Assembly: GCA_944391115.1 (NCBI GenBank)
Contig: CALXSJ010000004.1
Location: 101,957 to 165,956, forward strand
Reading direction: 5' to 3'
DNA: 64,000 nucleotides
DNA from: an uncultured Victivallales bacterium
GTDB taxonomy: Bacteria; Verrucomicrobiota; Lentisphaeria; Victivallales; UBA1829
This document shows positions 3,394 through 41,553 of the stretch, piece by piece. Under the pieces are notes generated by a model. That model ran no database searches and was not told the DNA's origin. It saw nothing but the letters and a program-made list of their open reading frames with translations. Within the stretch, counting starts at the first letter, position 1. Each line of letters begins with the position of its first letter. The translations under genes and the position numbers were made by a program.

Positions 3394-5189
3394 CGTCTCC
3401 GCTCCGTTTCCGATTTTCCATCCGCAGGCGGAAGCAGTTTCTCCATGGCCTGAAGAATTGCCCCGGATATGGTTTTTCCCGCGGCGTTCTCCTCCCATTC
3501 CACGGCAGCGTCTGCGGAATTTTCCCCTTCCGCGCGGCCGGAGGGAACCGCGTTTCCGGAAGAATCCGGCGGAATCTCCCCGACGGTTTTCGATTCGATC
3601 CAGGAAATGGACTCATCGGAAATCATGACCGCCGCGTATTCTATGATGTCGCGGAATTTCTTTTTCACACCGAGAATCCGTTCGGAAACATCTCCGATAT
3701 TGCGCCGTCCGATCTCCACCGTGCGCCCCGGCACGAGGACGGCAAGAGTCTCGCCGACCGGAAAGGAAATGTAATCCTGACGGAACATGTCGGTAAAGCG
3801 GACGCAAAGAAGAATCGTCACATTGTGAAGCGCCTTTTTCCCGGTATTCGTCACATGCAGGATCACACTGTTGGTGAAAAATGCGGAATCAATGGCTATG
3901 TCCACCTCATTTTCCGGATCGGCGCTGATCCGGAAAAGATCGGTTTTCAGAAAACGGCTGGAGAAACGGAAATCGTCCAGGACCTTGTCCCATTCCCCCT
4001 GCATGCGCCGCCGGAAAAAGTGATCGAAGATCTTTTTGCGCGCGGCCTCGCGCCGGCCGTCCCTGAGCAGAAGGCGCGCCAGCTGGAAGTCCGGGCTGAA
4101 GTATCCGGATCCCGACATGATCGCGCGAAAGGCGTTGACAATGATCCTCCCCTCCATGGACTGATTGAGATAAGCGCGCTTCCGGTAGATGCCGAGTCGG
4201 TCGGTGAGCTCCTTCTGCTGCTTCGGGAAATACACCGCGGCCTGGGAGAAATCGGTGACCGCCTCGTCGGAACGGTTCATCCGGACTTTCACCACGCCGC
4301 GCAGAAGATGTCCCGGAGCGCTGGCGGGATACCTGTTCAGGAATCCGGCGATCAGACCGTCCGCGGCGGCGAAATCCCCCTCCCCTCCCCGCTCCAGCAG
4401 CGCCATGGCCAGAAGGATGTGCGCCTCCTTCTCATCCGGAGCAAGCCTGACCGCGGCGGACGCATTCGCAATCACCTCGTCAAGGCTGCCTTCCCAGGCG
4501 GCGAGATAGGCGCGGTCGCGCAGCGCGCAGAGCCGTTCCCATTCGCCGTAATACCGGGAGGAGAGAGTCATGAACTCAAACAGGAAATCAATGATCTCAT
4601 CCTGATTCCGGTCCACCCGGAGGCGCAGTTCGCCGCTCATCCGCGCCCGTTCCCGATGCTTCTCCCAGATTCTCTGCGCCTGAACGCGGCTGTAGGAGAA
4701 TGCGAGCGGATCCACAACGGAGGCGAAATCCAGCAATGCATCGCGCGCGGTATGGTAAAGGGATTTCAGTTCCGCTTCGGACGCCCGGTTCGAAAGCAGA
4801 TTCTTGTAGACATTGAAAAAGCGGTATTTGAGAAGCTGAACTTCCGGAGCGACCTTTTCCGGCGAATCCTGAACGATATATTCCGTCAGCTGTTCAAAGT
4901 TTCCGGCCTCCCGAAGCGCGGTCTCCATGGCAAAAAGCGCCTCCGCCGTGGTATCGGGATCATACTGCGGAGCCGCGCCGGCAAGGAGCTTTTTCTCCAT
5001 CCGGGCGATCCGCTGTTCCACACGCGGTTCCGCTTCGCGGATATATTCCGGCTTTTCATCCTGTTTCCACGGACGGACAAGCAGCAGAACGCAGAAAACG
5101 AGGAGAAGCAGAAAGATGCCGGAAAAAATCAGACACCCGCCTGCAGCCGGCGAAAACTTTTTCTTGTTCGGAACATTTTCTTCCGCCAT
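3390..5189 (-). CDS. Membrane-anchored hypothetical protein with helical-repeat (TPR-like) region
   Basis: 599-aa ORF with a single N-terminal hydrophobic anchor (CLIFSGIFLLLLVFCVLLLV). Middle has TPR-like helices (AHILLAMALLERGG, LLRGVVKVRMNRSDEAVTDF). No family recognised. Translationally coupled to the AraC gene. Confidence 0.65.
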   Translation of the reverse strand: MAEENVPNKKKFSPAAGGCLIFSGIFLLLLVFCVLLLVRPWKQDEKPEYIREAEPRVEQRIARMEKKLLAGAAPQYDPDTTAEALFAMETALREAGNFEQLTEYIVQDSPEKVAPEVQLLKYRFFNVYKNLLSNRASEAELKSLYHTARDALLDFASVVDPLAFSYSRVQAQRIWEKHRERARMSGELRLRVDRNQDEIIDFLFEFMTLSSRYYGEWERLCALRDRAYLAAWEGSLDEVIANASAAVRLAPDEKEAHILLAMALLERGGEGDFAAADGLIAGFLNRYPASAPGHLLRGVVKVRMNRSDEAVTDFSQAAVYFPKQQKELTDRLGIYRKRAYLNQSMEGRIIVNAFRAIMSGSGYFSPDFQLARLLLRDGRREAARKKIFDHFFRRRMQGEWDKVLDDFRFSSRFLKTDLFRISADPENEVDIAIDSAFFTNSVILHVTNTGKKALHNVTILLCVRFTDMFRQDYISFPVGETLAVLVPGRTVEIGRRNIGDVSERILGVKKKFRDIIEYAAVMISDESISWIESKTVGEIPPDSSGNAVPSGRAEGENSADAAVEWEENAAGKTISGAILQAMEKLLPPADGKSETERRR

Positions 5190-5318
5190 AAAAACGGTCC
5201 TGCAAACATTGTTTCAGAAAATGCGCATGTTCAAAACTGTCAAGACAAATTTCCCGGACAAGGAAAACGGGAAACCTGCGATCCGCGGGGAAGCGCATGC
5301 GCCGGATCGGTTCCCCCG

Positions 5319-6200
5319 TCAGAATTTCATCAAATCCTCAAACGTCCGGCAGAGCTTTGCAATGGAAACATGCTGTGACGCGGAATTGGTTTCATTCTGC
5401 ATGCTCAGAATGCGCGGACACTGTTTCAGCGCCGGGATCAGACTCTTCCAGTCAACCGTTCCCGTGCCGGGAAGATGGTGCTGGTCCTCATATCCGTTAT
5501 TATCATGCAGATGGCAGGTCACAATATGCGGAGCGAGCTTCCCGAAGGCATCCGGTTCCTGCACGACGCCGTTTTTCCAGCAGAGATTCATGTAGGAAGC
5601 ATATTTTGCGGGATCCTTGCCTGGCTTCTTTGCCATGACGTTCGCATGTCCGGCGTCAAAACAGCATCCGAGAACCGGCGTGTTGAAATAATGAAGGAAG
5701 TAAAGAACCTCGTCCGGCGTGTTGAACGGCTCGAAACTGTTTTCCAGGGCAATGACGATCCCGAGCTTCTCCGCCGCAGGAATCAGCTTTTCGAGGGAAT
5801 CGACCGCCAGCGCGCGCATTTCTCCGAGTGTCGTGTTCTTGTAGTAGCAGTCGTAGGCGCCGATATGCATCACGTAGGAACGGCAGCCGAAGTCGGCGGC
5901 ATACTCCATGCAGAGTTTGTGATCCTCGATCATGGCGCTCCGGCGGGGGCGGTCCGTGATGTTCAGGTCCCAGGCGGTGCCCCAGAGGCCGTGGCACTCG
6001 AACATTTTCATGCCGCTCTCCCGGAGCCAGCTGAGAAGAGTGGTGTAAAATCCGGGTTCCCGCACCAGGCGTTTCTCCCATGAGGTGTCCAGGACGATGT
6101 TTTCCGCGCCGTTGTCGGCAAATTCGCACAGAATGTTCACGATGAAATCATCGCTGATTTTCCCCCAGGGGAAAAAGTGGGACAAGGGAATTGTATTCAT
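5319..6200 (-). CDS. Sugar phosphate isomerase/epimerase (xylose isomerase-like TIM barrel)
   Basis: 293 aa with family-typical segments (IVIALENSFEPFNTPDEV, GCCFDAGHANV, VTCHLHDNNG). ATG at 6200 overlaps the histidine kinase stop (ATGA). Confidence 0.8.
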   Translation of the reverse strand: MNTIPLSHFFPWGKISDDFIVNILCEFADNGAENIVLDTSWEKRLVREPGFYTTLLSWLRESGMKMFECHGLWGTAWDLNITDRPRRSAMIEDHKLCMEYAADFGCRSYVMHIGAYDCYYKNTTLGEMRALAVDSLEKLIPAAEKLGIVIALENSFEPFNTPDEVLYFLHYFNTPVLGCCFDAGHANVMAKKPGKDPAKYASYMNLCWKNGVVQEPDAFGKLAPHIVTCHLHDNNGYEDQHHLPGTGTVDWKSLIPALKQCPRILSMQNETNSASQHVSIAKLCRTFEDLMKF

Positions 6201-8167
6201 GAATCGTTTCCTCCATTGTTTTCAGAAAACTGTTCTGCAGGCAGAATCACATCGAAAGCGGCGCCGCGCCCCGGCAGATTGCCGCACTGGAGCCAGCCGT
6301 TGTGCGCAAGAATGGTTCCATATGCCATGGCCAGTCCCATGCCGGTTCCCTTCCCGACGGGTTTCGTCGTGAAAAAGGGTTCGAACACCCGGGATTTCAC
6401 AGCGGGATCAATTCCCGTCCCGGTATCCTCGACGCGGATGACGCAGAGCTTCCGCGCCGGATCCGGCTTCACTTCCGGCGGCGGATCAAGTGCAATGCCC
6501 ATCGCCTGCGGGTCGCCGATCCGGATCGTCAGGATCTGTTCCTCGCTCTCCGTATTGGACTGCATCGCATCCTTGGCGTTTATCATCAGGTTGAGAAGAG
6601 TCTGCTGGAGCTGAATCGCATCGCCGCGGACGATGTACCGCCTTCCGTCGTCAAGAATCCGGAAGGTGATGCCGGACTGCGTGCCGGGGAGAAAGAGATC
6701 CGCGCACTTGTCCACGAGCCCGCGCACATCCACATCGGCATTCTGGTAGTTTCCCTTCCTCGCGAAACTGAGCATCTGCGAGGTCAGCGTTCCGGCGAGT
6801 TCCGTGATATGGTCGATCTTGTCCAGGTTGCGCCGGACATCCTCGTCCTCCACGTCGTGCATGTATCTGATGATGTCGAGATGCCCCTGGATGGCATGCA
6901 GATAGTTGTTGAAGTCATGCGCGATTCCTCCCGCAAGACGGCCGATCGCTTCAAGACGCTGCCGGTGCGACACCTGCGAATGCCATTCCTCGCGTTCGCG
7001 CTCCAGTTTGCGCCGTTCCGTGACATCCCGTCCGAAGGTAATCAGAAGCGGCGCGTTTTCAAACGGAATCATGGTGATGGAGAGCTCCAGCTCCGTCTCC
7101 TTTTCCGGAACGATAATGGAACAGGACACAGACAAATCCTCCGCCGTGCGCGGAAGCTCGGAATCGCCGCCGCGCTCCAGAAGATGGCGCCAGACCTCCG
7201 GATTCAATCCGGCAACCTCCTCGAACGAATGGTTGATGACCTCTGAAAAGGTATCCGCACCGAGCATTTTAAGCGCGGCGCGGTTCGCGTCGATCACCCA
7301 GCCGTTCTCATTCATGACGACAATCATGTCGCTGGCGTTCTGAACCAGCATCCGATAGCGTTCCTGCGATTCGCGGAGATTCTGCTCCAGCTTGAGAGCG
7401 CGCCCGTATCCGCCGAAGAATGCCAGAATGATGTCCAGCGTGCGGCGCGACTCTCCCGGATTTTCATGCGAGATCCTTGAAAGATAGATCGTCGTCGGGA
7501 CACTCAGGATCAATACGAAAATCGCACGGGCAAAATACGAAGTCGTGAGCTGTGCCCACCATGCGGACGAGCCCCAGTAGGCGATCGTCACAAACACAAT
7601 ATGGTCAATCAGCTGAATCAGCAGCAGAGAACCCGTCACGGTTACATACAGCCGGCAGCGGAAATTCATCAGACGCTGGAAGAAGATCGGCAGCAGGAAC
7701 AGGTCGAACGTCAGAGCAATCACCGCCGCCGCCATCATCCGCAGACTGTTCGAAAGCAGAAATCCGAAAGATTCCGTCACGATGCTCTGGGGCATCGTAT
7801 AGCCGGGCCAGGTGGTCTGCACCAGGGTAATCGAAGCCAGATAGGCGTAAAATCCGAGCGATGCCATGACGCCGATAATCAGACGCTGCGCGGCAAGCGT
7901 GCCGTCCGTCAGGTAGACCACCACGAGGACGGCCAGAAACGGCAGGAAGAGAACCGACGAGGAGAGAGAAAAATCCAGTCCCTGATAACCGATCATCATC
8001 CGGAGTCCGGAAGCGCCCGTCAGCTGGGTGAAAACCAGAAGGACGCCGGCGGCGATGTAAAACGGCGTGGAGCCGAGAACCTTGCGCAGACCGTGAAGAA
8101 TCAGCAGCCCCGCGAGAATGAACGTCATCTCCAGAAGAGTGAGACAGCATCCGTAAAAGATTTCCAC
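6197..8167 (-). CDS. Sensor histidine kinase (multi-TM N-domain, PAS, HisKA, HATPase_c); no receiver domain
   Basis: About 230 aa of hydrophobic helices, then a PAS-like segment (ERYRMLVQNASDMIVVMNENGWVIDANRAALKMLG). H-box GGIAHDFNNYLHAIQGHL. ATP-lid motifs LLNLMINAKDAM, EDTGTGID and GTGMGLAMAYG. Confidence 0.9.
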   Translation of the reverse strand: MEIFYGCCLTLLEMTFILAGLLILHGLRKVLGSTPFYIAAGVLLVFTQLTGASGLRMMIGYQGLDFSLSSSVLFLPFLAVLVVVYLTDGTLAAQRLIIGVMASLGFYAYLASITLVQTTWPGYTMPQSIVTESFGFLLSNSLRMMAAAVIALTFDLFLLPIFFQRLMNFRCRLYVTVTGSLLLIQLIDHIVFVTIAYWGSSAWWAQLTTSYFARAIFVLILSVPTTIYLSRISHENPGESRRTLDIILAFFGGYGRALKLEQNLRESQERYRMLVQNASDMIVVMNENGWVIDANRAALKMLGADTFSEVINHSFEEVAGLNPEVWRHLLERGGDSELPRTAEDLSVSCSIIVPEKETELELSITMIPFENAPLLITFGRDVTERRKLEREREEWHSQVSHRQRLEAIGRLAGGIAHDFNNYLHAIQGHLDIIRYMHDVEDEDVRRNLDKIDHITELAGTLTSQMLSFARKGNYQNADVDVRGLVDKCADLFLPGTQSGITFRILDDGRRYIVRGDAIQLQQTLLNLMINAKDAMQSNTESEEQILTIRIGDPQAMGIALDPPPEVKPDPARKLCVIRVEDTGTGIDPAVKSRVFEPFFTTKPVGKGTGMGLAMAYGTILAHNGWLQCGNLPGRGAAFDVILPAEQFSENNGGNDS

Positions 8168-8200
8168 CGCATCAGCGCCTTTCCCTGTTGTACCGCCGCC

Positions 8201-9265
8201 TTATTCCTGCAGAAACTTTCTCAGAAGCGCGGCGCGCGCGACGTCGCGGTTTTCCTGATCCAGTTCCCGCCCTTCGTATTTCTGGAGATGCGCGGCCTGA
8301 ACCAGAAGGAACAGTTCATTGACCGTATGAATGTTCACGGACCGGAACATGTTCAGGTCCACTCCGAGCCGCAGCGCGGAAAGGGAGTTGAGAGACTCGT
8401 CTCCGGAAATGATGTAGGAATGCTTCAGCAGTCCGTAAGCGCGCCCGATATGGTTCATCAGATGGTTCTGGCGGTTCGCAAGAAGCAGCGCGCGCGCCTT
8501 TTTTTCGTGCGTGATGATCTGCGCAATCACCGATGCAAGACGACGGATGATCTGCTCCTCGCTCTCCCCCAGCGTGCTCTGATTGGAAATCTGATAGAGA
8601 TTGCCGAGCGTCTGGCTGCCCTCTCCGTAGAAGCCGCGCGCCGCAAGCCCGAGCTTGTTGACTCCCTGCACGACGGCCTGAATCTGATTCGTCAGGACAA
8701 GTCCCGGCAGATGGAGCATCACGGAGGCGCGCAGCCCGGTTCCCAGATTCGTCGGGCAGGACGTCAGATAGCCGAACGTCTTGTCAAAGGCGAACGGCAG
8801 CTCCATGGAAAGCTCATCGTCCAGACGGCTGATCCTCCTCCAGATTTCATTCAGCTGAAATCCCGGAGCAAGCACCTGAAGGCGCAGGTGATCCTCCTCG
8901 TTGACCATCACGAACAGCCCCTGTTCACGATTCGTCACCAGCCCCGCGCCGCGGCGGGGATTCAGGAACTCCCGGCTGATGAGGTGGCGTTCCAGCAGAA
9001 ATCGGCGGTCCAGCTCGGAAAGCTCGTCCACCTTGAACTCGCAGGTTTCCGTCTCCTTCATGGAATCCGCCCGCTCCAGCACGCCGAAAACGGAATCGCG
9101 GACAGCCGTCAGGGAAACGTCATCGGAACGGACGGGAAACGGCTCTCCGGAAAGATTGCGCGCCAGACGGATGCGGCTGCTGATGGCGATGTCATCCTCC
9201 GGGCCGTTGTCCGTCAGCCAGCAGACAGGCTGACGGAACAGCGCATCGATCCGCTCATTCGGCAT
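8201..9265 (-). CDS. mcsB: Protein arginine kinase McsB (ATP:guanido phosphotransferase family)
   Basis: 354 aa. Motifs SSRIRLARNL, EEDHLRLQ and LTSCPTNLGTGLRASVMLHLPGL are typical of McsB/guanidino kinases. Confidence 0.9.
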   Translation of the reverse strand: MPNERIDALFRQPVCWLTDNGPEDDIAISSRIRLARNLSGEPFPVRSDDVSLTAVRDSVFGVLERADSMKETETCEFKVDELSELDRRFLLERHLISREFLNPRRGAGLVTNREQGLFVMVNEEDHLRLQVLAPGFQLNEIWRRISRLDDELSMELPFAFDKTFGYLTSCPTNLGTGLRASVMLHLPGLVLTNQIQAVVQGVNKLGLAARGFYGEGSQTLGNLYQISNQSTLGESEEQIIRRLASVIAQIITHEKKARALLLANRQNHLMNHIGRAYGLLKHSYIISGDESLNSLSALRLGVDLNMFRSVNIHTVNELFLLVQAAHLQKYEGRELDQENRDVARAALLRKFLQE

Positions 9266-9830
9266 GGACGTCCTCCTTCCCCTCCCCTTCCAGCGCCTTC
9301 TTCAGCTCCTGAATCCGGTCCCGCAGGACGGCGGCCTCCTCGTATTCCTCATTCCGGATCCGGATTTCCAGTTCCTGCTGGCAGTCGGCTATCTTTTTGC
9401 GGAGAGCAACTTTCTCGATCACATCCTCGGTCCGATGATCCGTTTCATGATTCCGCGGAGTCTTCCCGAGATGCGTCGACCCGCGGTGCATATTTTCCAA
9501 TACGCCGGACAACACCTCGGAAAAGACCAGATAACACTCGGGGCAGCCGAGACGGCCGGTCTTCCGGAAACGTTCCGCATCCCAGCCGCAGGCGGCGCAT
9601 TTCACGGACGGCGCGGCGGACGTCTCCTCGGCTCCGCCGGCATTTTCCTGCCCGTTCTCATTGGTGAAATTGTAAAGCATTTCGGCAAGGTTGAAGCTCT
9701 GGAGGATCGGTTCCGTTTCCGCATTTTTCGCGGCGCACTCCGCACAGAGATGAAACACTTTCTTTTCGCCGTTGATGATCTCCTGGACATGGATTGTGGC
9801 GGGATTCTTGTTGCAGATCTGGCACAGCAT
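9255..9830 (-). CDS. mcsA: McsA-like activator (zinc-ribbon pairs plus UVR motif)
   Basis: Has CQICNK...HLCAECA and CAACGW...CPECY Cys pairs, followed by a UVR-type helix (EEYEEAAVLRDRIQELKK). Overlaps mcsB by 11 nt. Confidence 0.85.
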   Translation of the reverse strand: MLCQICNKNPATIHVQEIINGEKKVFHLCAECAAKNAETEPILQSFNLAEMLYNFTNENGQENAGGAEETSAAPSVKCAACGWDAERFRKTGRLGCPECYLVFSEVLSGVLENMHRGSTHLGKTPRNHETDHRTEDVIEKVALRKKIADCQQELEIRIRNEEYEEAAVLRDRIQELKKALEGEGKEDVHAE

Positions 9831-9853
9831 GGAGGAGGCTCCTTGAATCAGGT

Positions 9854-10582
9854 TCAGAATGACACGTTCACATCCCCGCTGAGGGTGTGGGGCGGAGGGA
9901 CGATGAAACAGCCGGAAACGTCGTTCCAGTCGCGGTCCCAGCTGCTGAGCATCAGAGGATCGGTCGGGGGGCCCCAGGGATTGATGTCGACAATCAGGAT
10001 CTTTCCGCCCGCCGTGAAATAGATGTCCATCGCACAGTCACGCAGTTCGAGAAGCGGCGCAATTTCATTCACGAATTTCTCCGCTTTCGACCAGTAGGTC
10101 TGCCGGAGATTCACCAGACGGCGGAAATGACGGATGAGCCAGTACTGGCTCATGGCCTGCAGCTTCCCTCCGCGGATGAACAAGCGGAATTCGCGGGTCA
10201 CATCCATGCGCCGGAACGGACGGATGCAGATCCGGGAGACGGTCCCGGCCTCCGCGGCAGAACGCACCTTCGAACTTTCCGCAAGCACAGCCCATGCGCT
10301 CTTTGCCGAGCTGACCGCGCCGCGTTTCCGGAGAAAGCGTTCCGTGTCGGTCGGCGCAACCGCGTCCACGGAAACAAAACGCATCCCGCTGAATGTGCGC
10401 AGGGCAAGATTCAGGCGCGGCAGAACGGCGCTGACCACTTCGCCCTCCGTTTCTCCGGCGGAAAGGGCGGCGATTTCAGGCTCTTTCAAACTCAGGAACA
10501 CGGCGGGAAAACTGTAGGAGGACAGTTTCGGATACCAGTCCTGCATACGGTAGAAATCGTAATTTTTCACAATGAATCCCAT
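9854..10582 (-). CDS. CDC123/D123-family ATP-grasp-like protein
   Basis: 242 aa. Aligns by eye with eukaryotic CDC123: N-terminal DWYPKL, mid EFRLFIRGGKLQAMSQ, C-terminal MDIYFTAGGKILIVDINPWGPPTDPLMLSSW (compare human DIYRDSRGKVWLIDFNPFGEVTDSLLFTW). Strong RBS AAGGAAGGTGAGG sits before the ATG. Confidence 0.7.
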   Translation of the reverse strand: MGFIVKNYDFYRMQDWYPKLSSYSFPAVFLSLKEPEIAALSAGETEGEVVSAVLPRLNLALRTFSGMRFVSVDAVAPTDTERFLRKRGAVSSAKSAWAVLAESSKVRSAAEAGTVSRICIRPFRRMDVTREFRLFIRGGKLQAMSQYWLIRHFRRLVNLRQTYWSKAEKFVNEIAPLLELRDCAMDIYFTAGGKILIVDINPWGPPTDPLMLSSWDRDWNDVSGCFIVPPPHTLSGDVNVSF

Positions 10583-10599
10583 ACCTCACCTTCCTTATT

Positions 10600-11550
10600 T
10601 TAAAACAGGTCCTCGTCATCCTTCCGCGGCGGATTCAGCTGTTTCTGCACTCGGCTGAACACAACCAGGTGATAGAGGAAAAACGCAATGAAGAACACCG
10701 TCTGGAAACTCAGGAACGGAAGCGCCATCCCCGAAAAAAGAGCCGCGATGATCAATGGAGGAAACGCCGCATAAAGCGTAAGAATCAGAATCGTCCGGAA
10801 GCCCATTTTCCGTTCCGCGCCGTTCACCGACCAGAAATACTGGGCCAGAGCGAAAAAGAGCACCGCAAAAAAGCAGAGCAGCAGCATCCCGAAAAATGCC
10901 AGAATAAAAATCACAAATGCCACGCCGGAAATCATCTGCCCTGCGACAACGGCCGGATTGTCCACGGAGAAACCGTCCGGCCAGAGGGCGAGATCCTCCA
11001 TCTTCTCCCCCTTTTTCAGGCTGAAGCGGTCCGCCAGATACGCGCCGAGCTCCTCGCGGGAAGTCACCAGTTTCATCCATGGAATTTCCTGCGCAAGGCG
11101 TCCGTCGAGCACGGAACTCATCACCATATACTGCTCATGCGCAGTGCCGGACACGTTCCGGAACCATGTCACAATCGCACGGTCAAGCAGAACGATTCCA
11201 TAATCGGAGTCCCATTGCCGCACCGCGGACGGCTGAAAAGACGCGCCGGGGAAATAATCAAAACGCATCCGGGGATTCAGGATATAACTTTGCGCCTTTT
11301 CCGGATTCTTCAGCAGGCGGATGCCGGTATCCCGCGAGATCGTCACACCGCCGACCTGTTCGAACAGAACATTGCAGACGCGCCGGATCTCCCTGCCGAT
11401 CAGCCAGGTATTCACCGCGGAAAGACAGGCGGACAGAAGAACAAGCAGCAGCACGAAGTGAAAAAGCGCCCGCCAGACGGAACGGTTCATCAGCTGAAGA
11501 AAAACCGCCGTCCCGGTGCAGACCTGAAACACTGTCCTGAAAAAATTCAT
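10600..11550 (-). CDS. Polytopic membrane protein (DUF1189-like architecture)
   Basis: 316 aa. N-terminal MNFFRTVF plus a TM helix, then a soluble ~150-aa loop, then C-terminal hydrophobic helices. The family call comes only from this architecture and the N-terminal pattern. Confidence 0.55.
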   Translation of the reverse strand: MNFFRTVFQVCTGTAVFLQLMNRSVWRALFHFVLLLVLLSACLSAVNTWLIGREIRRVCNVLFEQVGGVTISRDTGIRLLKNPEKAQSYILNPRMRFDYFPGASFQPSAVRQWDSDYGIVLLDRAIVTWFRNVSGTAHEQYMVMSSVLDGRLAQEIPWMKLVTSREELGAYLADRFSLKKGEKMEDLALWPDGFSVDNPAVVAGQMISGVAFVIFILAFFGMLLLCFFAVLFFALAQYFWSVNGAERKMGFRTILILTLYAAFPPLIIAALFSGMALPFLSFQTVFFIAFFLYHLVVFSRVQKQLNPPRKDDEDLF

Positions 11551-11554
11551 CGTT

Positions 11555-12169
11555 TTAGGAAACCAGTCGCTTGATGGTGTAATTCTTATTGCCGGACTTC
11601 CGGATGATCTTTTCCAGAGCGGGAAGAATCTCTTCGAAATCCGGCGATTTCACGCGCTGGACATACACCACACCGTCCAGATGGTCGAGCTCGTGCTGGA
11701 GCGCGCGCGCCAGAAGCCCGCCGCAGTCCAGATGAACGGGCGGTCCGTCCAGGATCTGCGCCTTGAGCACAACGGAAACCGGCCGCTCCACAGGTGCGTA
11801 AATCTTCGGCACGCTCAGGCATCCTTCCTCGCGCGTCTCCAGCGCACGGGAAAACGAAACGATCTCGGGATTGACAAGAACCACCGGCATCCGGTGACAG
11901 AGTTCCGTCTCGCCAGGAGAAAGCGGCATGATGATATTTCCCGCCTTGTCCGTCGGCGGATCGACATGCAGCGCAACCATTCGCAGCGGAACGCCCACCT
12001 GCGTCGCCGCAAGACCGATGCCGTCTTTGGCATACATCGTTTCAATCAGTTTTTTCCCGAAATCGCGAATCTCATCGTCGATGCGCTGCACCATCTTCGC
12101 CTTCGCATGCAGCACGTTGTCGCCGAGAGTCCGGACTGTCAGAATTTTCTTTTTTCCGGTGTTCAGCAT
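11555..12169 (-). CDS. def: Peptide deformylase
   Basis: Contains the three Def motifs GIGLAATQVG, EGCLSVP and HELDHLDG. Start is ambiguous among ATGs at 12178, 12175 and 12169; 12169 is best spaced from GGAGG at 12183-12179. Confidence 0.9.
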   Translation of the reverse strand: MLNTGKKKILTVRTLGDNVLHAKAKMVQRIDDEIRDFGKKLIETMYAKDGIGLAATQVGVPLRMVALHVDPPTDKAGNIIMPLSPGETELCHRMPVVLVNPEIVSFSRALETREEGCLSVPKIYAPVERPVSVVLKAQILDGPPVHLDCGGLLARALQHELDHLDGVVYVQRVKSPDFEEILPALEKIIRKSGNKNYTIKRLVS

Positions 12170-12186
12170 TTCCATCATCCTCCGTT

Positions 12187-13779
12187 TCAGCACGCGGTTC
12201 CGAGCGCAAGAGTTTTTCTGATCCGGGAAGCGCATGCGCCCGTTCCGATCACGGCGGCCGTCTCATACATGCTCCCGCCGACCGTCACACCGGTCACGGC
12301 GACCCGCAGCGGCTGATTCAGCTTGCATGCGCCCATGCCGTGCGCGGACTCGACTTCGCGCAGCGTCTGTTCAACCTCCGTTTCATTCATCGACGGCTTC
12401 CGTTCAAAAATATCGGCAAGCGCGGCAAGCGCCGTCCTTGTCGTTTCGTCGGAAAGCAGCTTGCGGAATCCCTTCGGATCATATTCAAGGTCATCGCAGA
12501 AGAAGTATTTCCAGGCGTTCACGTCCTGATAGGTTTTCGTGCGGGTCTGCATCAGCGCGGCGACCTTGGCGAAAAGCTCCCGGGAAGCGGACGCGCGCCA
12601 CTCCCAGCGTCCGGCAAAATCCCATGCCTCGGATTCGAAGCGTGCAAACGGCATTTCCGCCAGATACATTCCGTTCATGTTCGCAAGCTTGACAAGGTCG
12701 AACTGCGCGGGGGACCGCTGGGCGCGGTCAATGGAAAACGCCTCGACCAGCTCCCGCCTTGTCATTTTCTCGCGGTTGTCGCCGGGCGACCATCCGAGCA
12801 GAGAAAGATAGTTGAAGAGCGCTTCCGGCAGGAATCCCTTTTCGCGGAAATCACCCACAAACGCGTCGCCGTCGCGTTTGCTGTACGGCTTTCCGGAGGC
12901 GTTCACCAGCATCGGAAGATGCGCATAAGTCGGCGGCGTGAATCCAAGAGCCTGAAACAGAAACAGATGGCGGTACGTGTTCTCCACATGATCGTCGCCC
13001 CGCACAATGTGGGTCACGCGCTGCGTCACGTCGTCGCAGACGTTCGCCAGATGGAAGACCGGGCTGCCGTCGCTGCGGATGATGACAAGATCCTTGATTC
13101 CGTCGAGCGGTTTTGCCAGTTCCCCTTTCACGAGATCGTTGAAAAAGACTTCACGGCGCGAAAACTCGAACGCGGCGGCTCCGGAAATGATTTTCGGCTC
13201 AACCAGCTGTTCCACCTCACGGATATTGGAAGCGTCAAGCGTGAAAATCACGTTTCCGGCTCCGTCGAACACGTTCAGATCCTTGAATCCCGCAAGTCCG
13301 GCTGCATTTTCAACGGTTTTTCCCTTGTGGTTGACCACGGACCAGGTCAGCCCGGCGCGGGAAACTGCAAACGGCGCTTCCGGCGCCAGTTCCGTGCGGA
13401 CGCGTCCGCAGGCACGGACAAAGGGGAAGGAATCGCAGTCATACGGGAGACGGAACAGCACCGGGGAGCCGGGCTGTCCCGGATTGAGTTCATAAGCAAC
13501 CCCTCTGGCGATCAGGTCGCGCGCCGCCTGCTTGTGATGTTCGCTCTGGGAGGTCTGGTACATCACCTCGCCGTCGTAATCAAGTCCAAGCCATTTCATG
13601 CACTCGAACAGGGCGTCGATCGCCTGTTTTGTGGAACGCTCCAGATCGGTGTCCTCAATGCGGAGCAGGAACTCTCCTCCGCAATGGCGGGTGTAAAGCC
13701 AGTTGAAAATTGCGGTTCTGATATTGCCGATATGAACCTGTCCCGTGGGGGACGGCGCGAATCTGGCTCTGAAATCCAT
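12187..13779 (-). CDS. gltX: Glutamate--tRNA ligase
   Basis: N-terminus RFAPSPTGQVHIGNIRTAIFNW carries the HIGH motif, and a YSKR-type second motif is present. ATG at 13779 (MDFRARF) is preceded by AAGGAG; the track start at 13809 is less likely. Confidence 0.9.
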   Translation of the reverse strand: MDFRARFAPSPTGQVHIGNIRTAIFNWLYTRHCGGEFLLRIEDTDLERSTKQAIDALFECMKWLGLDYDGEVMYQTSQSEHHKQAARDLIARGVAYELNPGQPGSPVLFRLPYDCDSFPFVRACGRVRTELAPEAPFAVSRAGLTWSVVNHKGKTVENAAGLAGFKDLNVFDGAGNVIFTLDASNIREVEQLVEPKIISGAAAFEFSRREVFFNDLVKGELAKPLDGIKDLVIIRSDGSPVFHLANVCDDVTQRVTHIVRGDDHVENTYRHLFLFQALGFTPPTYAHLPMLVNASGKPYSKRDGDAFVGDFREKGFLPEALFNYLSLLGWSPGDNREKMTRRELVEAFSIDRAQRSPAQFDLVKLANMNGMYLAEMPFARFESEAWDFAGRWEWRASASRELFAKVAALMQTRTKTYQDVNAWKYFFCDDLEYDPKGFRKLLSDETTRTALAALADIFERKPSMNETEVEQTLREVESAHGMGACKLNQPLRVAVTGVTVGGSMYETAAVIGTGACASRIRKTLALGTAC

Positions 13780-13912
13780 CGTATTGCTCCTTAAATAAAG
13801 TATGCGCAAAAGCGGTTTGGACTTTTGCGCGCTGAAAAAACAATTCTGAAAATGAACTTTCCCGGAGCTCCGCGGAGAATCGCCGCCGCGGAGGATTCCG
13901 GAACGTCCGCGG

Positions 13913-15325
13913 TCAGTATTCGCCGGTCGCCGCCATCAGCTGAGCTTTGGCATTATGCATGTTGATGACGTAGGTCGCAAGGGAGGTTTCCGCATCGACC
14001 AGGTCGCGCTGCGCCTCGTTCAGACGGGTCAGCTCGGTATTTCCGGCACGGTATTCCTCATCGACGAGGTCGCGGATTTTCCGGTAAAGTTCCAGACTCT
14101 TCTGGAAAATCTTGACCTGTTTCAGACATGTAAGATAGTTGTCATAGGCGGTTCTGACTTCGGCAACCACGGTGATCCACGTGTTTGCCAGCGAGTAGTC
14201 GCTCTGGAGCATGGCGGCCTGGAAGCGCCGCATATTGAAGAAGGTTTCCCCGCCGCTGAACAGCTCCCAGGAGACATTCCCCCCGTAACTGAAGTAAAAG
14301 GTTTCACTTTTATTGGTGCGGCTGTTGGAGTCGTCATACGCCTTGATGCGGCTCTGTCCGACAGTATAGCCGATGTTCGCATTCAGGGAGACGGTCGGTC
14401 CGAAGGAACAGATGGATCCCCAGTAGTTGTATTTGGCGACTTCAAGCGCCTCGCGGTATGCCTTGAGGTCGGGACGGCTCGCGAGAGCGGTATCCAGATA
14501 GACGGCAAGACTGGAGAGAACCTCGCCGTCGGGAGACGGCACGCCGGGGAACTGCACTTCCTCGTGAATCGTGCCCTCTGTCAGCCCCATCAGCTGGGCG
14601 AGCGCGTATTTGGAGGCGGCAAGCTGATACTGCGCGGCATACAGGTCGGATTCCGCGGAGTTGTAGTAGGCCTTGAAGTTGAGCACATCGCTCAGAGGGA
14701 CGGCGCCGACTTCGAACTTCAGTTCGTTTTCCTTCAACTGGGAATTCTGGAATTTCATGTTTTCCTTGGCGATCACGATTTTGGCATTCGCCAGCAGGAT
14801 GTCATTGTAGGCGTAGGCGACGGTCCGCACAAGGATGCGGCGGGCGTCAAGTTCGAGCGCTTCGCTCTGCTTCCAGTTGTGGCGGGCGGCAAGCAGGTTC
14901 ATCTCGCGGACAAAAGAGTCGAAGAGCAGCCAGTTCGCGGTTGCGCTGGGACCGTTTTCAAACGAGCGGGAGCCGTTCTGGATGTTGTTGTAAACATTGT
15001 TGGGCTCATTGAACGTATGGGTAATGGAATATCCCGCGGTAATGGTCGGCATGTAGGGGGCAAAGGCCGCATAATAGGACGCCCGGGCGGCGACGACTGC
15101 GAAATACTTTGTCTTGAAGTCCGGATTGTTCTGAACTGCAAGATTCTGGGCATCCTCCAGCGTCAGAAGCTTCTGGGTGATATCCAGTTTCTTGTGTTCC
15201 GAACCGGGAATGCTGGTGAACGCGCTTCTTGAAATCGCCACCGGAGGTTTCGGATACGACGTGCACCCTGAGAGGACGACCAGTCCAGACAGAGCAAATA
15301 CCGCTGCAATACGTTTTCTGTCCAT
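13913..15325 (-). CDS. TolC/NodT-type outer-membrane efflux lipoprotein
   Basis: Lipobox signal MDRKRIAAVFALSGLVVLSGC. Two-repeat outer-membrane-factor pattern with coiled segments (LAARHNWKQSEALELDARR, LNEAQRDLVDAETSLATYVI). No RND or MFP partner genes are adjacent. Confidence 0.8.
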   Translation of the reverse strand: MDRKRIAAVFALSGLVVLSGCTSYPKPPVAISRSAFTSIPGSEHKKLDITQKLLTLEDAQNLAVQNNPDFKTKYFAVVAARASYYAAFAPYMPTITAGYSITHTFNEPNNVYNNIQNGSRSFENGPSATANWLLFDSFVREMNLLAARHNWKQSEALELDARRILVRTVAYAYNDILLANAKIVIAKENMKFQNSQLKENELKFEVGAVPLSDVLNFKAYYNSAESDLYAAQYQLAASKYALAQLMGLTEGTIHEEVQFPGVPSPDGEVLSSLAVYLDTALASRPDLKAYREALEVAKYNYWGSICSFGPTVSLNANIGYTVGQSRIKAYDDSNSRTNKSETFYFSYGGNVSWELFSGGETFFNMRRFQAAMLQSDYSLANTWITVVAEVRTAYDNYLTCLKQVKIFQKSLELYRKIRDLVDEEYRAGNTELTRLNEAQRDLVDAETSLATYVINMHNAKAQLMAATGEY

Positions 15326-15483
15326 TTCGTGAAATCCTTTAGCCTGTTTATCAAAAGCCCTGCGGCCTGCCGTTTTGTTACCCATCTGTTTTATAAGTGA
15401 GTATTATACACTTATCTTCCCCTGAATTCAAACAGAAAGCGGCGCGGAAATGATTTTTTTATTAAATTATTTTGCTGCTGAAA

Positions 15484-30982: not shown

Positions 30983-32896
<1,914 letters not shown>

Positions 32897-32917
32897 GCAA
32901 TAAGGTTCGAACCGTTT

Positions 32918-32955
32918 CCCCGGAGTCCCGACACTCCGGGGAAATGATTTTATTC
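32918..32955 (+). terminator. Hairpin after dnaK (terminator or attenuator)
   Basis: CCCCGGAGT / ACTCCGGGG stem with a 6-nt loop, followed by aaatgaTTTTATT. The T-tract is not immediately adjacent to the stem. Confidence 0.55.
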
Positions 32956-33008
32956 AGACAGGAAACCCTGTAAAAAACACATATTCCAAAAAAGGAGAAG
33001 ATCCAGCA

Positions 33009-33308
33009 ATGAGCAAGATCAGCATTCAGCCCCTCGGAGACAGAGTTCTCGTTGAGCAGAAACAGGAAGCCGAACAGATCAAAGGCGGAATCGTGATTCC
33101 GGATTCGGCCAAGGAGAAACCCCTGGAAGCCGTGGTGGTCGCGCTCGGAACGGGAAAACTCGACGACAAGGGCAACAAGATCCCCTTCGACGTGAAAGTC
33201 GGCGACGTCGTCCTCACCAGCAAATACGGCGGCACCGAAATCAAGTATGACGACAAGGAATACAAGATTCTCAGCGCCGGCGACATTCTCGCCGTCATCA
33301 GCAAGTAA
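33009..33308 (+). CDS. groES: Co-chaperonin GroES
   Basis: 99 aa. [12 protein letters not shown] and [13 protein letters not shown] are present. Confidence 0.95.
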
Positions 33309-33338
33309 GTTCTGAAAATCCAGAAAAAATACAAATAA

Positions 33339-35000
<1,662 letters not shown>

Positions 35001-35050
35001 TTCATGCGGCATTCCCGCGCGGGCGGTTCTCCCGCCCGCATTGCCCGATA

Positions 35051-35089
35051 AAAACGGCGCAGGTCAAAACGATCTGCGCCGTTTTTTTA
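35051..35089 (+). terminator. Rho-independent terminator after groEL
   Basis: AAAACGGCGCAG / CTGCGCCGTTTT stem followed by a run of T. Confidence 0.8.
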
Positions 35090-35252
35090 TTTCCTTCTCC
35101 CGAAAGACGGCCGTTTCCGCAGAAAAAAAGGAAATCCGGCGGAAACGGGAACGGCGCATCAAAAAAATCGGAATTATTTTCTTTCAATAATTTGCAAAAT
35201 CACGCAAAAGGTGTCATATTTTATCAAACACAAAAAATGAAACGGAAAAACG

Positions 35253-36026
35253 ATGGTTCCGGAACGAAAGAGAAAACTGCTCTCCGCCGAACGTGAGACA
35301 CTGATCTGCAGAAGTCTCTCCCAGGGAGTCAAGACGATCTCCGAGCTCAGCGATGAGCTCCGGGTGTCGGAAGCGACCGTCCGGCGCGATCTGGAGACGC
35401 TGGAAGCCGGCGGCAAGCTGCGCCGGGTGCACGGCGGAGCGGAGCTCCTGCACGGACATCAGGAACCGGTCTACGAGGAAAAGGCGTCGCGGAATGCCGC
35501 GGAAAAAGCCTATATTGCGGAGAAAGCCGTTTCATTCATCAAGGATTCGGACACGATTTTCCTGGACGGCGGAAGCACCGTTCTGGAACTGGCGAAAAAA
35601 CTTGACCGTTTCCGCGACCTCACCGTGGTGACGAATTCGCTGATGGCGGCGTCGGCGCTGATGGAGCGCAGCTGCCGCCTGATTCTGGTCGGCGGGGAGT
35701 TCCGGAGCCTCAGCCGGACCCTGGTCGGACCGCTGACCGCCAAGATCCTCGACGGCATGAACATCTCCAAGGCGTTTCTCGGCACAATCGCCTTCAATCC
35801 CGAAAAAGGAATCAGCACGACCGATCCGAACGAGGCATACACCAAGGAGCTGGTCATGAAGCGGGCGGATCATGTTTATGTTCTGGCGGACAGCTCGAAA
35901 CTGACGCTTTCATCCTTCGTTTTCAGCGGAGCCATCCGGGACATCGACACGCTGATCTCCGATCCCGGCATCCCGCAGAACGTCATCAAGAAACTGAAAA
36001 CCCAAAATATAGAAGTGATATTCTAA
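35253..36026 (+). CDS. DeoR/GlpR-family transcriptional regulator
   Basis: N-terminal HTH (ISELSDELRVSEATVRRDLETLEAGGKLRRVHGGA) and a DeoR C-terminal sugar-phosphate sensor-like domain. Confidence 0.85.
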   Translation: MVPERKRKLLSAERETLICRSLSQGVKTISELSDELRVSEATVRRDLETLEAGGKLRRVHGGAELLHGHQEPVYEEKASRNAAEKAYIAEKAVSFIKDSDTIFLDGGSTVLELAKKLDRFRDLTVVTNSLMAASALMERSCRLILVGGEFRSLSRTLVGPLTAKILDGMNISKAFLGTIAFNPEKGISTTDPNEAYTKELVMKRADHVYVLADSSKLTLSSFVFSGAIRDIDTLISDPGIPQNVIKKLKTQNIEVIF

Positions 36027-39901: not shown

Positions 39902-40114
39902 TTACCCGATCGGCACAACGTCGTCAGCCTGCAGCCCCTTGGCGCCGTTCGTCACGACAAATTCGACTTCCTGCCCTTCTTTCACTGTGCGGTATCCGTC
40001 CATTTTGATCGAACTGTAATGCAGGAAAATATCATCTCCCTGCGCACGTTCAATGAAACCATACCCTTTTGAGTTGTTGAACCACTTGACTTTCCCTTTT
40101 TCTTTCTCCGGCAT
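39902..40114 (-). CDS. Cold-shock protein (CspA family)
   Basis: 70 aa. RNP1/RNP2 motifs KGYGFI and IFLHYS. Preceded by a long AT-rich leader that contains an ATGCGG/CCGCAT hairpin. Confidence 0.95.
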   Translation of the reverse strand: MPEKEKGKVKWFNNSKGYGFIERAQGDDIFLHYSSIKMDGYRTVKEGQEVEFVVTNGAKGLQADDVVPIG

Positions 40115-40316
40115 CTTGCACCACCATACCTTGATTACTTATTTTACTTTCCATGCGGCACCCGTCATCCGCATTCAACTTCGCTATACATTATCCTCAA
40201 AAAAACAGATTTGAAAAGGGGGAAAACTGAAAAAAATTAAAAATATTTGATTTTTTGTAAATAACCGACATAAAAAGCTTTTTTTCTTTTATCCCGATAC
40301 ACGCGGAAACGAAGAA

Positions 40317-40388
40317 TCCGTTATTTTATGTTTTCCCTTGTTTTATTTGGAATCCCTTGTTGATTTTTTGAAATCCTCCGTTATTTTA
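40317..40388. repeat. Intergenic direct repeats (12-mer x2 and 9-mer x2) upstream of the Gfo/TIM pair
   Basis: TCCGTTATTTTA occurs at 40317-40328 and 40377-40388. TCCCTTGTT occurs at 40334-40342 and 40353-40361. Confidence 0.5.
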
Positions 40389-40449
40389 ATGATCGTCCCG
40401 CTTCTGCCGTTGAGCAAAGACTGGACACATCTTTTCAAGGAGAAAAAAA

Positions 40450-41553
40450 ATGGCTGCAAAGAAGATCAGAATCGGCATCGCCGGAATCGGACGCGCAGGC
40501 TGGGGCATGCACTGCTCCGAACTGGACAAGTACAAGGATCTCTATGAAATCGTCGCGGCATGCGACATCGAGCAGGAAAGGCTGGACAAGATGGCGCAGC
40601 GCTATCCGAAATGCCGGACCTACCTGAAATACGATGACTTCCTGAAAGATAAAAACATGGAGATGGTTGCCGTTGCGGTTCGCTCTCCCGAACACACGGA
40701 ATTCGCTCTGAAGGCTCTGAAGGCGGGAAAATACGTTTTCCTGGAAAAACCCATCGCCCTGAGTTATGCAGACGCGAAACGTCTTGTCGCCGCTGCAAAA
40801 AAATACCCCGGCAAACTCTACTGCCGTCACAACAGACGCTTTGAACAGGCCTTCAATCACGTTCTGGAAATCATCCGCTCCGGAATTCTGGGCGAAGTGT
40901 ATGAAATCCGCAATACGGTGAACAGCTACCAGAGGCGCGACGACTGGCAGGCGATCATTGAATGCGGCGGCGGACAGCTGAACAACTGGGGTCCCCACAT
41001 CATCGACCATATGCTCCAGATGCTGGAGTCTCCCGTTGCCGAAGTCTGGAGCGATCTGAAAAAGGTCACGGCGGTCGGTGATGCGGAAGATCATGTCCGG
41101 ATCATTCTCAAAGGGCAGAACAAACGCCTTGCCGAAGTGGAAATCAGCGGCGGCGTCGCAATCCCGGGACCGTCCTATGTCGTTCACGGCACGCGCGGCA
41201 CCCTGATCTGCGAAAACGGAGACATCCGTCTGAAATACCTCGATCCGAACCAGAAACTTGAGAAAATCACCGCCAGCAAGGCGTCTCCGCCGATCACCGG
41301 ATCTTTCGGCCGCCAGGAACCATTCAAATGGATCCGCAAAACCATCATGGTGGAAGCTTCCTGCCCGGATACGGAATCCGACATTTACAAATATGTCTTC
41401 AACGCCGTCCGGAAAGGAGAGCCATTCCCTGTCACGATCGAGCAGGCGGCGGAAGTCGTCCGCATTACGGAAATCGTGAAGAACAACTCGGAATTCAAAG
41501 AGCAGGATGTGAAGCCTGCAAAAGCAGCAAAGAAAGGCTCCCGTAAGAAATGA
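40450..41553 (+). CDS. Gfo/Idh/MocA-family oxidoreductase
   Basis: Has IRIGIAGIGRAG and YVFLEKPIA. The stop overlaps the next gene start (ATGA at 41550-41553). Confidence 0.85.
   Translation: MAAKKIRIGIAGIGRAGWGMHCSELDKYKDLYEIVAACDIEQERLDKMAQRYPKCRTYLKYDDFLKDKNMEMVAVAVRSPEHTEFALKALKAGKYVFLEKPIALSYADAKRLVAAAKKYPGKLYCRHNRRFEQAFNHVLEIIRSGILGEVYEIRNTVNSYQRRDDWQAIIECGGGQLNNWGPHIIDHMLQMLESPVAEVWSDLKKVTAVGDAEDHVRIILKGQNKRLAEVEISGGVAIPGPSYVVHGTRGTLICENGDIRLKYLDPNQKLEKITASKASPPITGSFGRQEPFKWIRKTIMVEASCPDTESDIYKYVFNAVRKGEPFPVTIEQAAEVVRITEIVKNNSEFKEQDVKPAKAAKKGSRKK

Follow-up and report, generated by a model that had tools for sequence, protein, structure and literature searches.

A lysine-less CDC123-family ATP-grasp protein in housekeeping gene neighbourhoods of Lentisphaerota and Kiritimatiellota

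A stretch of 64,000 nucleotides (nt) from an uncultured Victivallales bacterium (assembly GCA_944391115.1, contig CALXSJ010000004.1, positions 101,957 to 165,956; here termed the window) carries at 9854..10582 on the reverse strand a gene for a CDC123/D123-family protein of 242 amino acids (aa). The protein is a full-length, compact CDC123 (R2K.1) member of the ATP-grasp superfamily and a representative of a lysine-less subclade from the Planctomycetes-Verrucomicrobia-Chlamydiae (PVC) group of bacteria. In Victivallales, D123 is the terminal gene of a conserved unit, (OEP)-gltX-def-TM316-D123; OEP denotes a TolC-like outer-membrane efflux protein and TM316 a membrane protein of 316 aa. With moderate confidence, we take the D123-like protein to be a Mg-nucleotide-binding CDC123-type factor that acts on a protein partner and is tied to co-translational maturation or membrane-protein biogenesis.

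Family membership, fold and phylogeny

The open reading frame (ORF) of the D123-like protein has an ATG start and a TGA stop at 9856-9854, and its product begins MGFIVKNYDFYRMQDWYPKL and ends SGDVNVSF. An earlier note, made from the letters of this DNA alone, had read the product as an ATP-grasp homolog that aligns along its whole length with eukaryotic CDC123, and had quoted three segments. All three are present: DWYPKL at residues 15-20, EFRLFIRGGKLQAMSQ at 131-146 and MDIYFTAGGKILIVDINPWGPPTDPLMLSSW at 185-215, the last being a C-terminal segment that HMMER pairs with human CDC123 DIYRDSRGKVWLIDFNPFGEVTDSLLFTW. The family assignment is borne out. Pfam D123 (PF07065) matches residues 111-213 with 62.6 bits against a gathering score of 24 (E=4.6e-17), and the listed homologs all carry a precomputed PF07065. 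D123 is clearly the best model: R2K_2 (PF18299, 24.9 bits) and R2K_3 (PF14243, 24.7 bits) match in the kinase-like half and stay just below their gathering scores, and the likeness to R2K.2 and R2K.3 proteins is limited to these sub-threshold matches. An NCBIfam scan of the protein gave zero matching models.

Comparisons of profiles and structures extend the homology over the full length. A profile of 18 homologs matches human CDC123 (8phd) with E=1.9e-14 and Schizosaccharomyces pombe Cdc123 with E of ~2e-7; hhalign pairs residues 6-215 with the classical-CDC123-like group at a probability of 100% (E=2.3e-41). An AlphaFold2 model built with 64 homologs has a mean local confidence (pLDDT) of 90.4 and a predicted TM-score (pTM) of 0.83. 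Its fold is that of a CDC123-type ATP-grasp protein: ranks 1-10 of a Foldseek search against the PDB are all CDC123 chains (E ~1e-13, TM-score 0.71-0.78), and the next matches are D-Ala-D-Ala ligases and RimK (TM-score 0.35-0.50). Whole-length alignment to CDC123 therefore holds at the profile and structure level, whereas in single-sequence comparison only residues ~111-217 are individually significant.

Eukaryotic CDC123 binds domain III of eIF2-gamma and promotes eIF2 assembly as a chaperone; its ATPase activity was first reported in 2025. The window protein has the full-length fold in common with the human and S. pombe proteins (PDB 8phd, 8phv, 4zgn-4zgq), along with an N-terminal W-Y-P, an A-P-x-D pocket (human A109-P-R-D), ExR, an Asp and D-x-N. 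Both are cytoplasmic and have a translation-related setting. The architecture of the window protein is single-domain, without the low-complexity inserts and the C-terminal extension of eukaryotic CDC123, and the eukaryotic client, eIF2, is absent from bacteria.

An exhaustive hidden Markov model search found 1,834 CDC123-family proteins, and a score gap separates the clade of the window protein (at least 160 bits) from the remaining family (at most 96 bits). A scan of one genome per GTDB species gave at least 100 loci; 80 were kept (L001-L080), and all 80 are from Lentisphaerota. A profile of divergent members adds Lentisphaerales/Lentisphaeraceae and Kiritimatiellota. The clade is monophyletic in 100/100 bootstraps of a neighbour-joining tree; its members come from Lentisphaerota (Victivallales, Lentisphaerales) and Kiritimatiellota. 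Distances are saturated and the tree leaves the place of the clade within the family unsettled. Scores from hhalign are 279 to the classical-CDC123-like group versus 287-304 to other bacterial groups. Accordingly, despite the shared D-x-N and A-P-x-D motifs, no special affinity to eukaryotic CDC123 is claimed: the scores for the three groups are alike and the tree placement is unsettled. The gene is conserved to about the same degree as its housekeeping neighbours, with a median identity of 54%, compared with 60% for gltX and 48% for def. Two clade members bear other taxonomic labels, 'Dpro_654515672' in a published alignment (supplement of PMC4431377) and P0331, 'Candidatus Pacebacteria bacterium', at NCBI; these labels could reflect mis-binning, contamination or rare horizontal gene transfer.

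Burroughs, Zhang and Aravind (2015; PMC4431377) list lentisphaerae among the bacterial lineages with CDC123 (R2K.1) and used a Lentisphaera araneosa protein as a search seed; L. araneosa gi 494490064 and 'Dpro' gi 654515672, both of the window-subclade type, are rows in their supplementary alignment. Several relatives are named 'cell division cycle 123 family protein' at NCBI. Family membership is therefore not new, and the family itself, published in 2015 with an L. araneosa ortholog, is not undescribed.

Active site of the subclade

The R2K clade is defined by an absolutely conserved Lys at the end of strand 2 of the RAGNYA fold (human K104); a second residue, Lys or Arg, lies in the strand 2-strand 3 loop with family-specific spacing (human R111) (PMC4431377). 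Residues A109 and R111 form part of the lining of the ATP pocket in the human protein, where R111 touches both the beta and the gamma phosphate. The homologous segment of the window protein is F-V-S71-V-D73-A-V-A76-P77-T78, its codons S71 to T78 lying at 10349..10372 on the reverse strand. Human F102-P-K104-L-N-W-S-A109-P-R111-D112 pairs with window F69-V-S71-V-D73-A-V-A76-P77-T78-D79, so that K104 and R111 are replaced by S71 and T78. Four alignments (HMMER, the published 2015 alignment, MAFFT and hhalign) are concordant in this correspondence.

Residue conservation was counted over 91 sequences of the window's clade and, for the wider family, over ~95 representatives in a MAFFT alignment of 113 family representatives. 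Neither position is basic in any of the 91 clade sequences: S, G, F and other non-basic residues occupy position 71, and 86 of the sequences have T at position 78. In the wider family the K104 column is almost always K or R, and the R111 column is K or R in most; the second basic residue is missing from some eukaryote-like members as well. The remainder of the site shows the opposite pattern. E131-F-R133 (10184..10192, reverse strand), the ExR motif on the first strand of the kinase-like domain (PMC4431377), is identical in 91/91 sequences, as are Q146 and R124. The acidic Mg/ATP ligands, from D186 through D199-I-N201 (9980..10027, reverse strand; human D233 and D246xN248), are kept in 90/91, the other sequence having an alignment gap. 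R121 is R or K in 90/91 and basic in almost every wider-family representative. The D123 profile, the CDC123-type fold, ExR, the strand-4 acidic residue and [DE]xN at the end of strand 5, by which the D123 family is recognised, are thus all present, and the two Lys/Arg residues that characterise the R2K clade are both missing. The earlier note had named the ATP-binding Lys, Asp and Arg residues as a point to check; the Asp residues are in place, and the absence of both basic residues had escaped it. D-x-N and A-P-x-D occur in the window clade and in classical eukaryotic CDC123, whereas most other bacterial-type members have E-x-N and S-P-K-D.

Because ExR, Q146, D186, DxN and R121 are kept while both R2K residues are replaced, we infer that the site was remodelled rather than decayed. 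Two basic residues, K86 (K or R in 87/91) and R87 (mostly R), lie, by the secondary structure of the model, in the strand 2-strand 3 loop, as human R111 does, and may substitute for the missing R2K residues. The protein would then still bind a Mg-nucleotide through a remodelled phosphate clamp, with K86 and R87 as candidates. As a natural experiment, the clade combines the removal of two signature phosphate-binding residues with a preserved metal-binding half of the site. One outlier at the base of the clade, P0152 (224 aa, from a 66-kb ENA contig; 162 bits), still carries the strand-2 Lys, in S-I-K-F-D, and has N-x-N in place of D-x-N; it may represent a state midway between the forms with and without the lysine.

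The same replacements raise the question of whether the protein is a pseudoenzyme that neither binds nor turns over ATP and acts as a scaffold or chaperone, its acidic residues binding a metal or a basic segment of a partner. Basic residues are lacking throughout the clade at positions 71 and 78, the first of which is K or R in nearly all other family representatives; the strand-2 lysine has been called absolutely conserved in the R2K clade (PMC4431377), and eukaryotic CDC123 is itself an assembly chaperone. However, the complete or near-complete conservation of ExR, Q146, D186, DxN and R121 is typical of selection for Mg-nucleotide chemistry, the near-invariant K86/R87 pair was gained in the very loop that holds human R111, and the second basic residue is dispensed with in some eukaryote-like members too. 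A pseudoenzyme is therefore unlikely, though its probability is far from slight.

Gene neighbourhoods

The D123-like gene lies in a series of genes on the reverse strand of the window, which in 5' to 3' order encode OEP (followed by a hairpin), GltX, Def, TM316, the D123-like protein, McsA, McsB, a VUPS-PAS histidine kinase and an AP_endonuc_2 protein. The OEP gene (13913..15385; Pfam OEP E=2.8e-62) is set apart by a terminator-like hairpin at 13804..13830, with a 10-bp stem followed by a T-rich tail, which is likely to be the upstream boundary of the operon. The longest ORF of gltX, glutamyl-tRNA synthetase, spans 12187..13809 (Pfam tRNA-synt_1c and Anticodon_2), and its true start is probably an internal ATG near 13779. 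The peptide deformylase gene def (11555..12235; Pfam Pep_deformylase E=1.4e-44) is 4 nt from the TM316 gene (10600..11550), and 17 nt separate the TM316 stop from the D123 gene, whose start is preceded by a Shine-Dalgarno-like AAGGAAGGTGAGG site. In a scan of the window, no terminator-like site was found from gltX through mcsB. The co-directional array with gltX and def that the earlier note had described is thus confirmed.

Neighbours were counted by tblastn with the window's neighbours as queries against the 80 Lentisphaerota loci, only loci with enough flanking sequence being included. The gene directly upstream of D123 is TM316 in 74/78 loci; def is upstream and co-directional in 71/73, gltX is found in 53/67 and the OEP gene in 56/62. 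This housekeeping, translation-flavoured context differs from the published contexts of bacterial family members, as the earlier note had supposed, and the linkage to def and gltX, which it had put forward as a point to check, is conserved. It had overlooked the tightest partner, TM316. L026 and L043 are the only two of the 80 loci with neither def nor a TM316-like gene upstream.

TM316 orthologs are ~300 aa long and have 4-5 hydrophobic segments. An AlphaFold2 model (pLDDT 85.6) has a long first transmembrane (TM) helix, then an alpha/beta domain on the periplasmic side (~69-196) and, at the C-terminus, a helical bundle. The order along the chain is one TM helix, the periplasmic domain, another 3-4 TM helices and a cytoplasmic tail, which is acidic and closes with KDDEDLF. 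The window TM316 has no significant family match in Pfam or NCBIfam: DUF1189/Yip1 reaches 15 bits (E=0.019) against a gathering score of 28, and P0126, a homolog with 77% identity, scores 31 bits, in both cases over the C-terminal TM bundle only. A Foldseek search against the PDB gave nothing significant; its weak matches are permeases of the MacB/LolC/FtsX type (E 0.05-0.4, TM-score ~0.2). A homolog search returned 14 proteins only, because the sequence diverges fast. The TolC-like OEP gene is a conserved upstream neighbour of the TM316 operon, and an ABC ATPase gene is absent from the operon.

Both TM316 and the D123-like protein have distinctive C-termini. TM316 (tail at 10600-10660 of the window) has at least three D or E among its final 10 residues in 60/77 orthologs; these 10 residues are 38% acidic, compared with 8.6% overall. 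A terminal Phe is present in 39/77, with endings such as KDDEDLF, DDDDF and DDFDDSDF. The TM316 tail resembles acidic C-terminal recognition tails of the type found in the single-stranded DNA-binding protein SSB or in tubulin. The tail of the D123-like protein, G236-D-V-N-V-S-F242 (9857..9877, reverse strand), is modelled with a pLDDT of 55-65 and is conserved as G-[DE]-[VI]-x-[VI]-S-F-COOH: 201 of 222 full-length members from three lineages end in Phe, and 196 in [VIL][SHTK]F. The clade has gained this tail, which is absent from eukaryotic CDC123. By their sequences, the two tails look like short recognition motifs.

Ten loci were sampled outside Victivallales: three from Lentisphaerales, three of the Kiritimatiellota type and four others. 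The three Lentisphaerales assemblies (L084, L086, L088; D123 at 5001-5696) have the order map-ffh-D123-acyl-CoA-ligase-like-pdxJ-efp-(CTP_transf/PfkB), with gaps of 0-3 nt. Their map gene encodes a type I Met aminopeptidase (TIGR00500, 232 bits); the gap between ffh and D123 is 3 nt, and efp lies downstream, in all three. In the Kiritimatiellota-type contigs (L081, L085, L087), D123 is followed by a gene for an AMP-binding enzyme of ~600 aa and then by one for a class I 3-deoxy-D-arabino-heptulosonate 7-phosphate (DAHP) synthase (aroFGH). The four remaining loci have different contexts again. At L089 only a fragment of the AMP-binding C-terminal domain is left.

These loci lend themselves to another explanation, in which the D123-like protein would be an amide ligase for small molecules, acting jointly with the adenylate-forming enzyme encoded next to it, and in Kiritimatiellota also with DAHP synthase, in the production or modification of a metabolite; the translation neighbours would be incidental. 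The AMP-binding gene directly follows D123 in 6/10 non-Victivallales loci from two lineages, at gaps of 0-138 nt (0-36 nt in 5/6), aroFGH is next in three, and amide-bond formation, often in metabolites, is usual for ATP-grasp enzymes of the ExR assemblage (PMC4431377). This pairing is missing, however, from all 80 Victivallales-type genome loci, where none of the AMP-binding, DAHP synthase, map, ffh and efp genes is adjacent to D123. The acyl-CoA-ligase-like gene matches generic fatty-acid-CoA-ligase models only; the CDC123 branch is otherwise tied to protein targets, and conserved, disordered tails at a C-terminus are found more typically in proteins that recognise other proteins. A small-molecule ligase is thus decidedly improbable.

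Downstream of D123, the window has mcsA (9255..9830), mcsB (8201..9265) and a VUPS-PAS-HisKA-HATPase sensor kinase gene (6197..8167, identified by Pfam), all on the reverse strand. The mcsA-like product has a UVR motif and aligns over its full length with NF053706 at 135.7 bits, under the cut-off of 210; mcsB, the protein arginine kinase gene (Pfam ATP-gua_Ptrans), is bona fide by NF002194 (408.8 bits against a cut-off of 385). The D123 stop lies 23 nt before the mcsA ATG at 9830, the distance that the earlier note had given, and the spacer contains an AAGGAG Shine-Dalgarno-like site. Co-transcription of D123 and mcsA in the window is likely because of this spacing, the Shine-Dalgarno site and the absence of a terminator. 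The earlier note had taken this arrangement, among others, as a sign of an activity tied to proteostasis or translation; as a model, the D123-like protein would form a functional module with McsA and McsB in protein arginine phosphorylation and proteostasis, and might, for instance, modify or assemble the substrates of McsB. The same arrangement recurs in 10-11 related loci.

Nevertheless, a downstream mcsA is limited to 10/67 loci; for mcsB the count is 9/61 and for the histidine kinase gene 6/59. The mcsAB-bearing loci are all among the closest relatives of the window protein (at least 56% identity), and the mcsA-mcsB-kinase cluster is restricted to one Victivallales subclade (L001-L008, L012, L014, L015). 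Three loci in the same range of relatedness (L009-L011, 57-62% identity) are without mcsA, and tblastn found mcsB nowhere in the remaining ~16-kb loci. Elsewhere the gene downstream of D123 is unrelated, varies by locus and is often convergent, and the neighbours in Lentisphaerales and Kiritimatiellota are entirely different. Because the downstream genes vary and mcsAB is rare, D123 is read as the end of a def-TM316-D123 unit to which mcsAB was a later addition in one subclade. The position of mcsAB next to D123 reflects a local accident in gene order and gives no clue to function. A link to proteostasis through the arginine kinase is thus not conserved; as a conserved association, it is already largely refuted, and a functional module with McsAB is very improbable. 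For annotation, this corrects as wrong an attractive inference. The mcsA-mcsB-histidine kinase cluster (6197-9830) stands in a Gram-negative PVC genome and has neither clpC nor ctsR adjacent.

The bacterial contexts discussed in the main text of the 2015 study are type VI secretion system (T6SS) polymorphic-toxin loci and Legionella effectors only (PMC4431377), in agreement with the earlier note. T6SS-locus and Legionella proteins are of the same Pfam family and the same R2K.1 branch as the window subclade. They differ in having [KR]-L-x-x-R-S-P-K-D and mostly E-x-N, the window subclade being lysine-less with D-x-N, and in being sporadic and prone to horizontal transfer, with VgrG/Hcp/PAAR/SUKH genes nearby or with secretion extensions, whereas the window subclade is lineage-wide in housekeeping operons. 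The Legionella rows of the 2015 alignment have extensions of more than 150 residues; the window protein has none. Signatures of T6SS, toxin or defence systems were absent from a Pfam analysis of the eight genes at 5319-13809 and the OEP and TPR neighbours (no VgrG, Hcp, PAAR or SUKH), PADLOC defence models gave zero matches, and homologous loci show housekeeping neighbours and no T6SS-type contexts. Although a conflict context is the only published one for bacterial members, the chance that the D123-like protein is a T6SS polymorphic-toxin accessory or a secreted effector is negligible and the proposal effectively refuted, given these negative searches, a length of 242 aa without N- or C-terminal secretion extensions, active-site motifs that differ from the ExN/S-P-K-D type and a lineage-wide, stable synteny in 74-78 species-level genomes, as opposed to the sporadic published members.

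Apart from the 2015 study, no paper linking CDC123 with these PVC taxa was found in the literature searched, and section IV of the 2015 supplement may hold a Lentisphaerae neighbourhood. In these sources, as far as they were searched, no description was found of lineage-wide housekeeping contexts, of a site that has completely lost both signature lysines and is otherwise kept, of the conserved C-terminal tail, or of the tight pairing with an acidic-tailed membrane protein.

Proposed role and further observations

In the reading favoured here, that of a nucleotide-binding factor in co-translational maturation or membrane-protein biogenesis, the D123-like protein would act on a protein partner, like eukaryotic CDC123, and not in conflict or secretion. 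Such action could be that of a nucleotide-gated assembly or holding factor, or of a ligase working on a carboxylate, modes that have been put forward or demonstrated for other CDC123 proteins. N-terminal methionine excision is carried out by Def and Map in sequence; SRP54, a protein of the signal recognition particle (SRP), likewise acts on nascent chains. D123 adjoins both excision enzymes in different lineages, def in Victivallales and map in Lentisphaerales. A co-translational role is suggested by recurrent neighbours that work on nascent chains where these leave the ribosome: Def in Victivallales, and in Lentisphaerales Map and SRP54/Ffh; gltX or efp is close by. The juxtaposition with Def/Map and SRP54 is the strongest contextual hint and points to co-translational maturation or membrane-protein biogenesis. 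In Victivallales, the acidic cytoplasmic tail of TM316 (...DDxDF) would be the most concrete candidate for a ligand or substrate.

A possible working analogy is offered by ATP-grasp enzymes that recognise acidic C-terminal tails: RimK (ribosomal protein S6), the tubulin tyrosine ligase family and LysX/LysW. RimK is only a distant fold match to the window protein (TM-score 0.38-0.42, E ~1e-5). Ligases of these types keep the strand-2 lysine, which the window clade is without. RimK-type systems are ligases, and ligase activity of the window protein would be by analogy only.

Several points weigh against this reading. Any biochemical activity assigned to a bacterial CDC123 protein would be by analogy. 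With the strand-2 lysine, which is nearly universal elsewhere in the family, the clade may also have lost ATP binding or catalysis, and compensation by K86/R87 is a candidate role only. Gene-order conservation within one order can be inherited synteny and not functional coupling. Co-divergence with the neighbours is modest (rho 0.22-0.59), because identity to a single reference saturates near 50%. TM316 and def are not beside D123 in Lentisphaerales or Kiritimatiellota, and therefore neither is an obligatory partner. The Def/Map coincidence is a post hoc hint, neither gene being a universal neighbour, and the acyl-CoA-ligase-like gene immediately downstream in 6/10 non-Victivallales loci fits a small-molecule role equally.

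A bolder proposal, which we regard as quite unlikely, would make this vertically inherited, lysine-less CDC123 paralogue a housekeeping factor of PVC bacteria (Lentisphaerota and Kiritimatiellota) and the bacterial equivalent of the eukaryotic eIF2-assembly chaperone, with its site of action either at the ribosomal exit or on a GTPase of translation. It would work with Def, Map and SRP on nascent chains or on membrane-protein clients such as TM316, possibly ligating to or gripping the acidic C-terminal tail. If this were true, the protein would provide a bacterial model, open to experiment, for the ancestral role of CDC123 before eukaryotes. Victivallis vadensis and Lentisphaera araneosa are named, cultured species. 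For the eukaryotic protein, the use of ATP is understood only in part, and the bacterial contexts described so far are conflict systems only. The subclade stands in contrast to these, with a stable, slowly evolving gene in core operons beside N-terminal methionine-excision enzymes and SRP in two PVC lineages. It would be a simpler system for asking what the CDC123 fold does to a protein client.

The window at large contains zero tRNA genes over its 64 kb. Its composition is anomalous in two regions: AT skew is 0.34 and 0.21 at 32001-36000, and GC content dips to 0.495 at 40001-42000, against a background of ~0.57.

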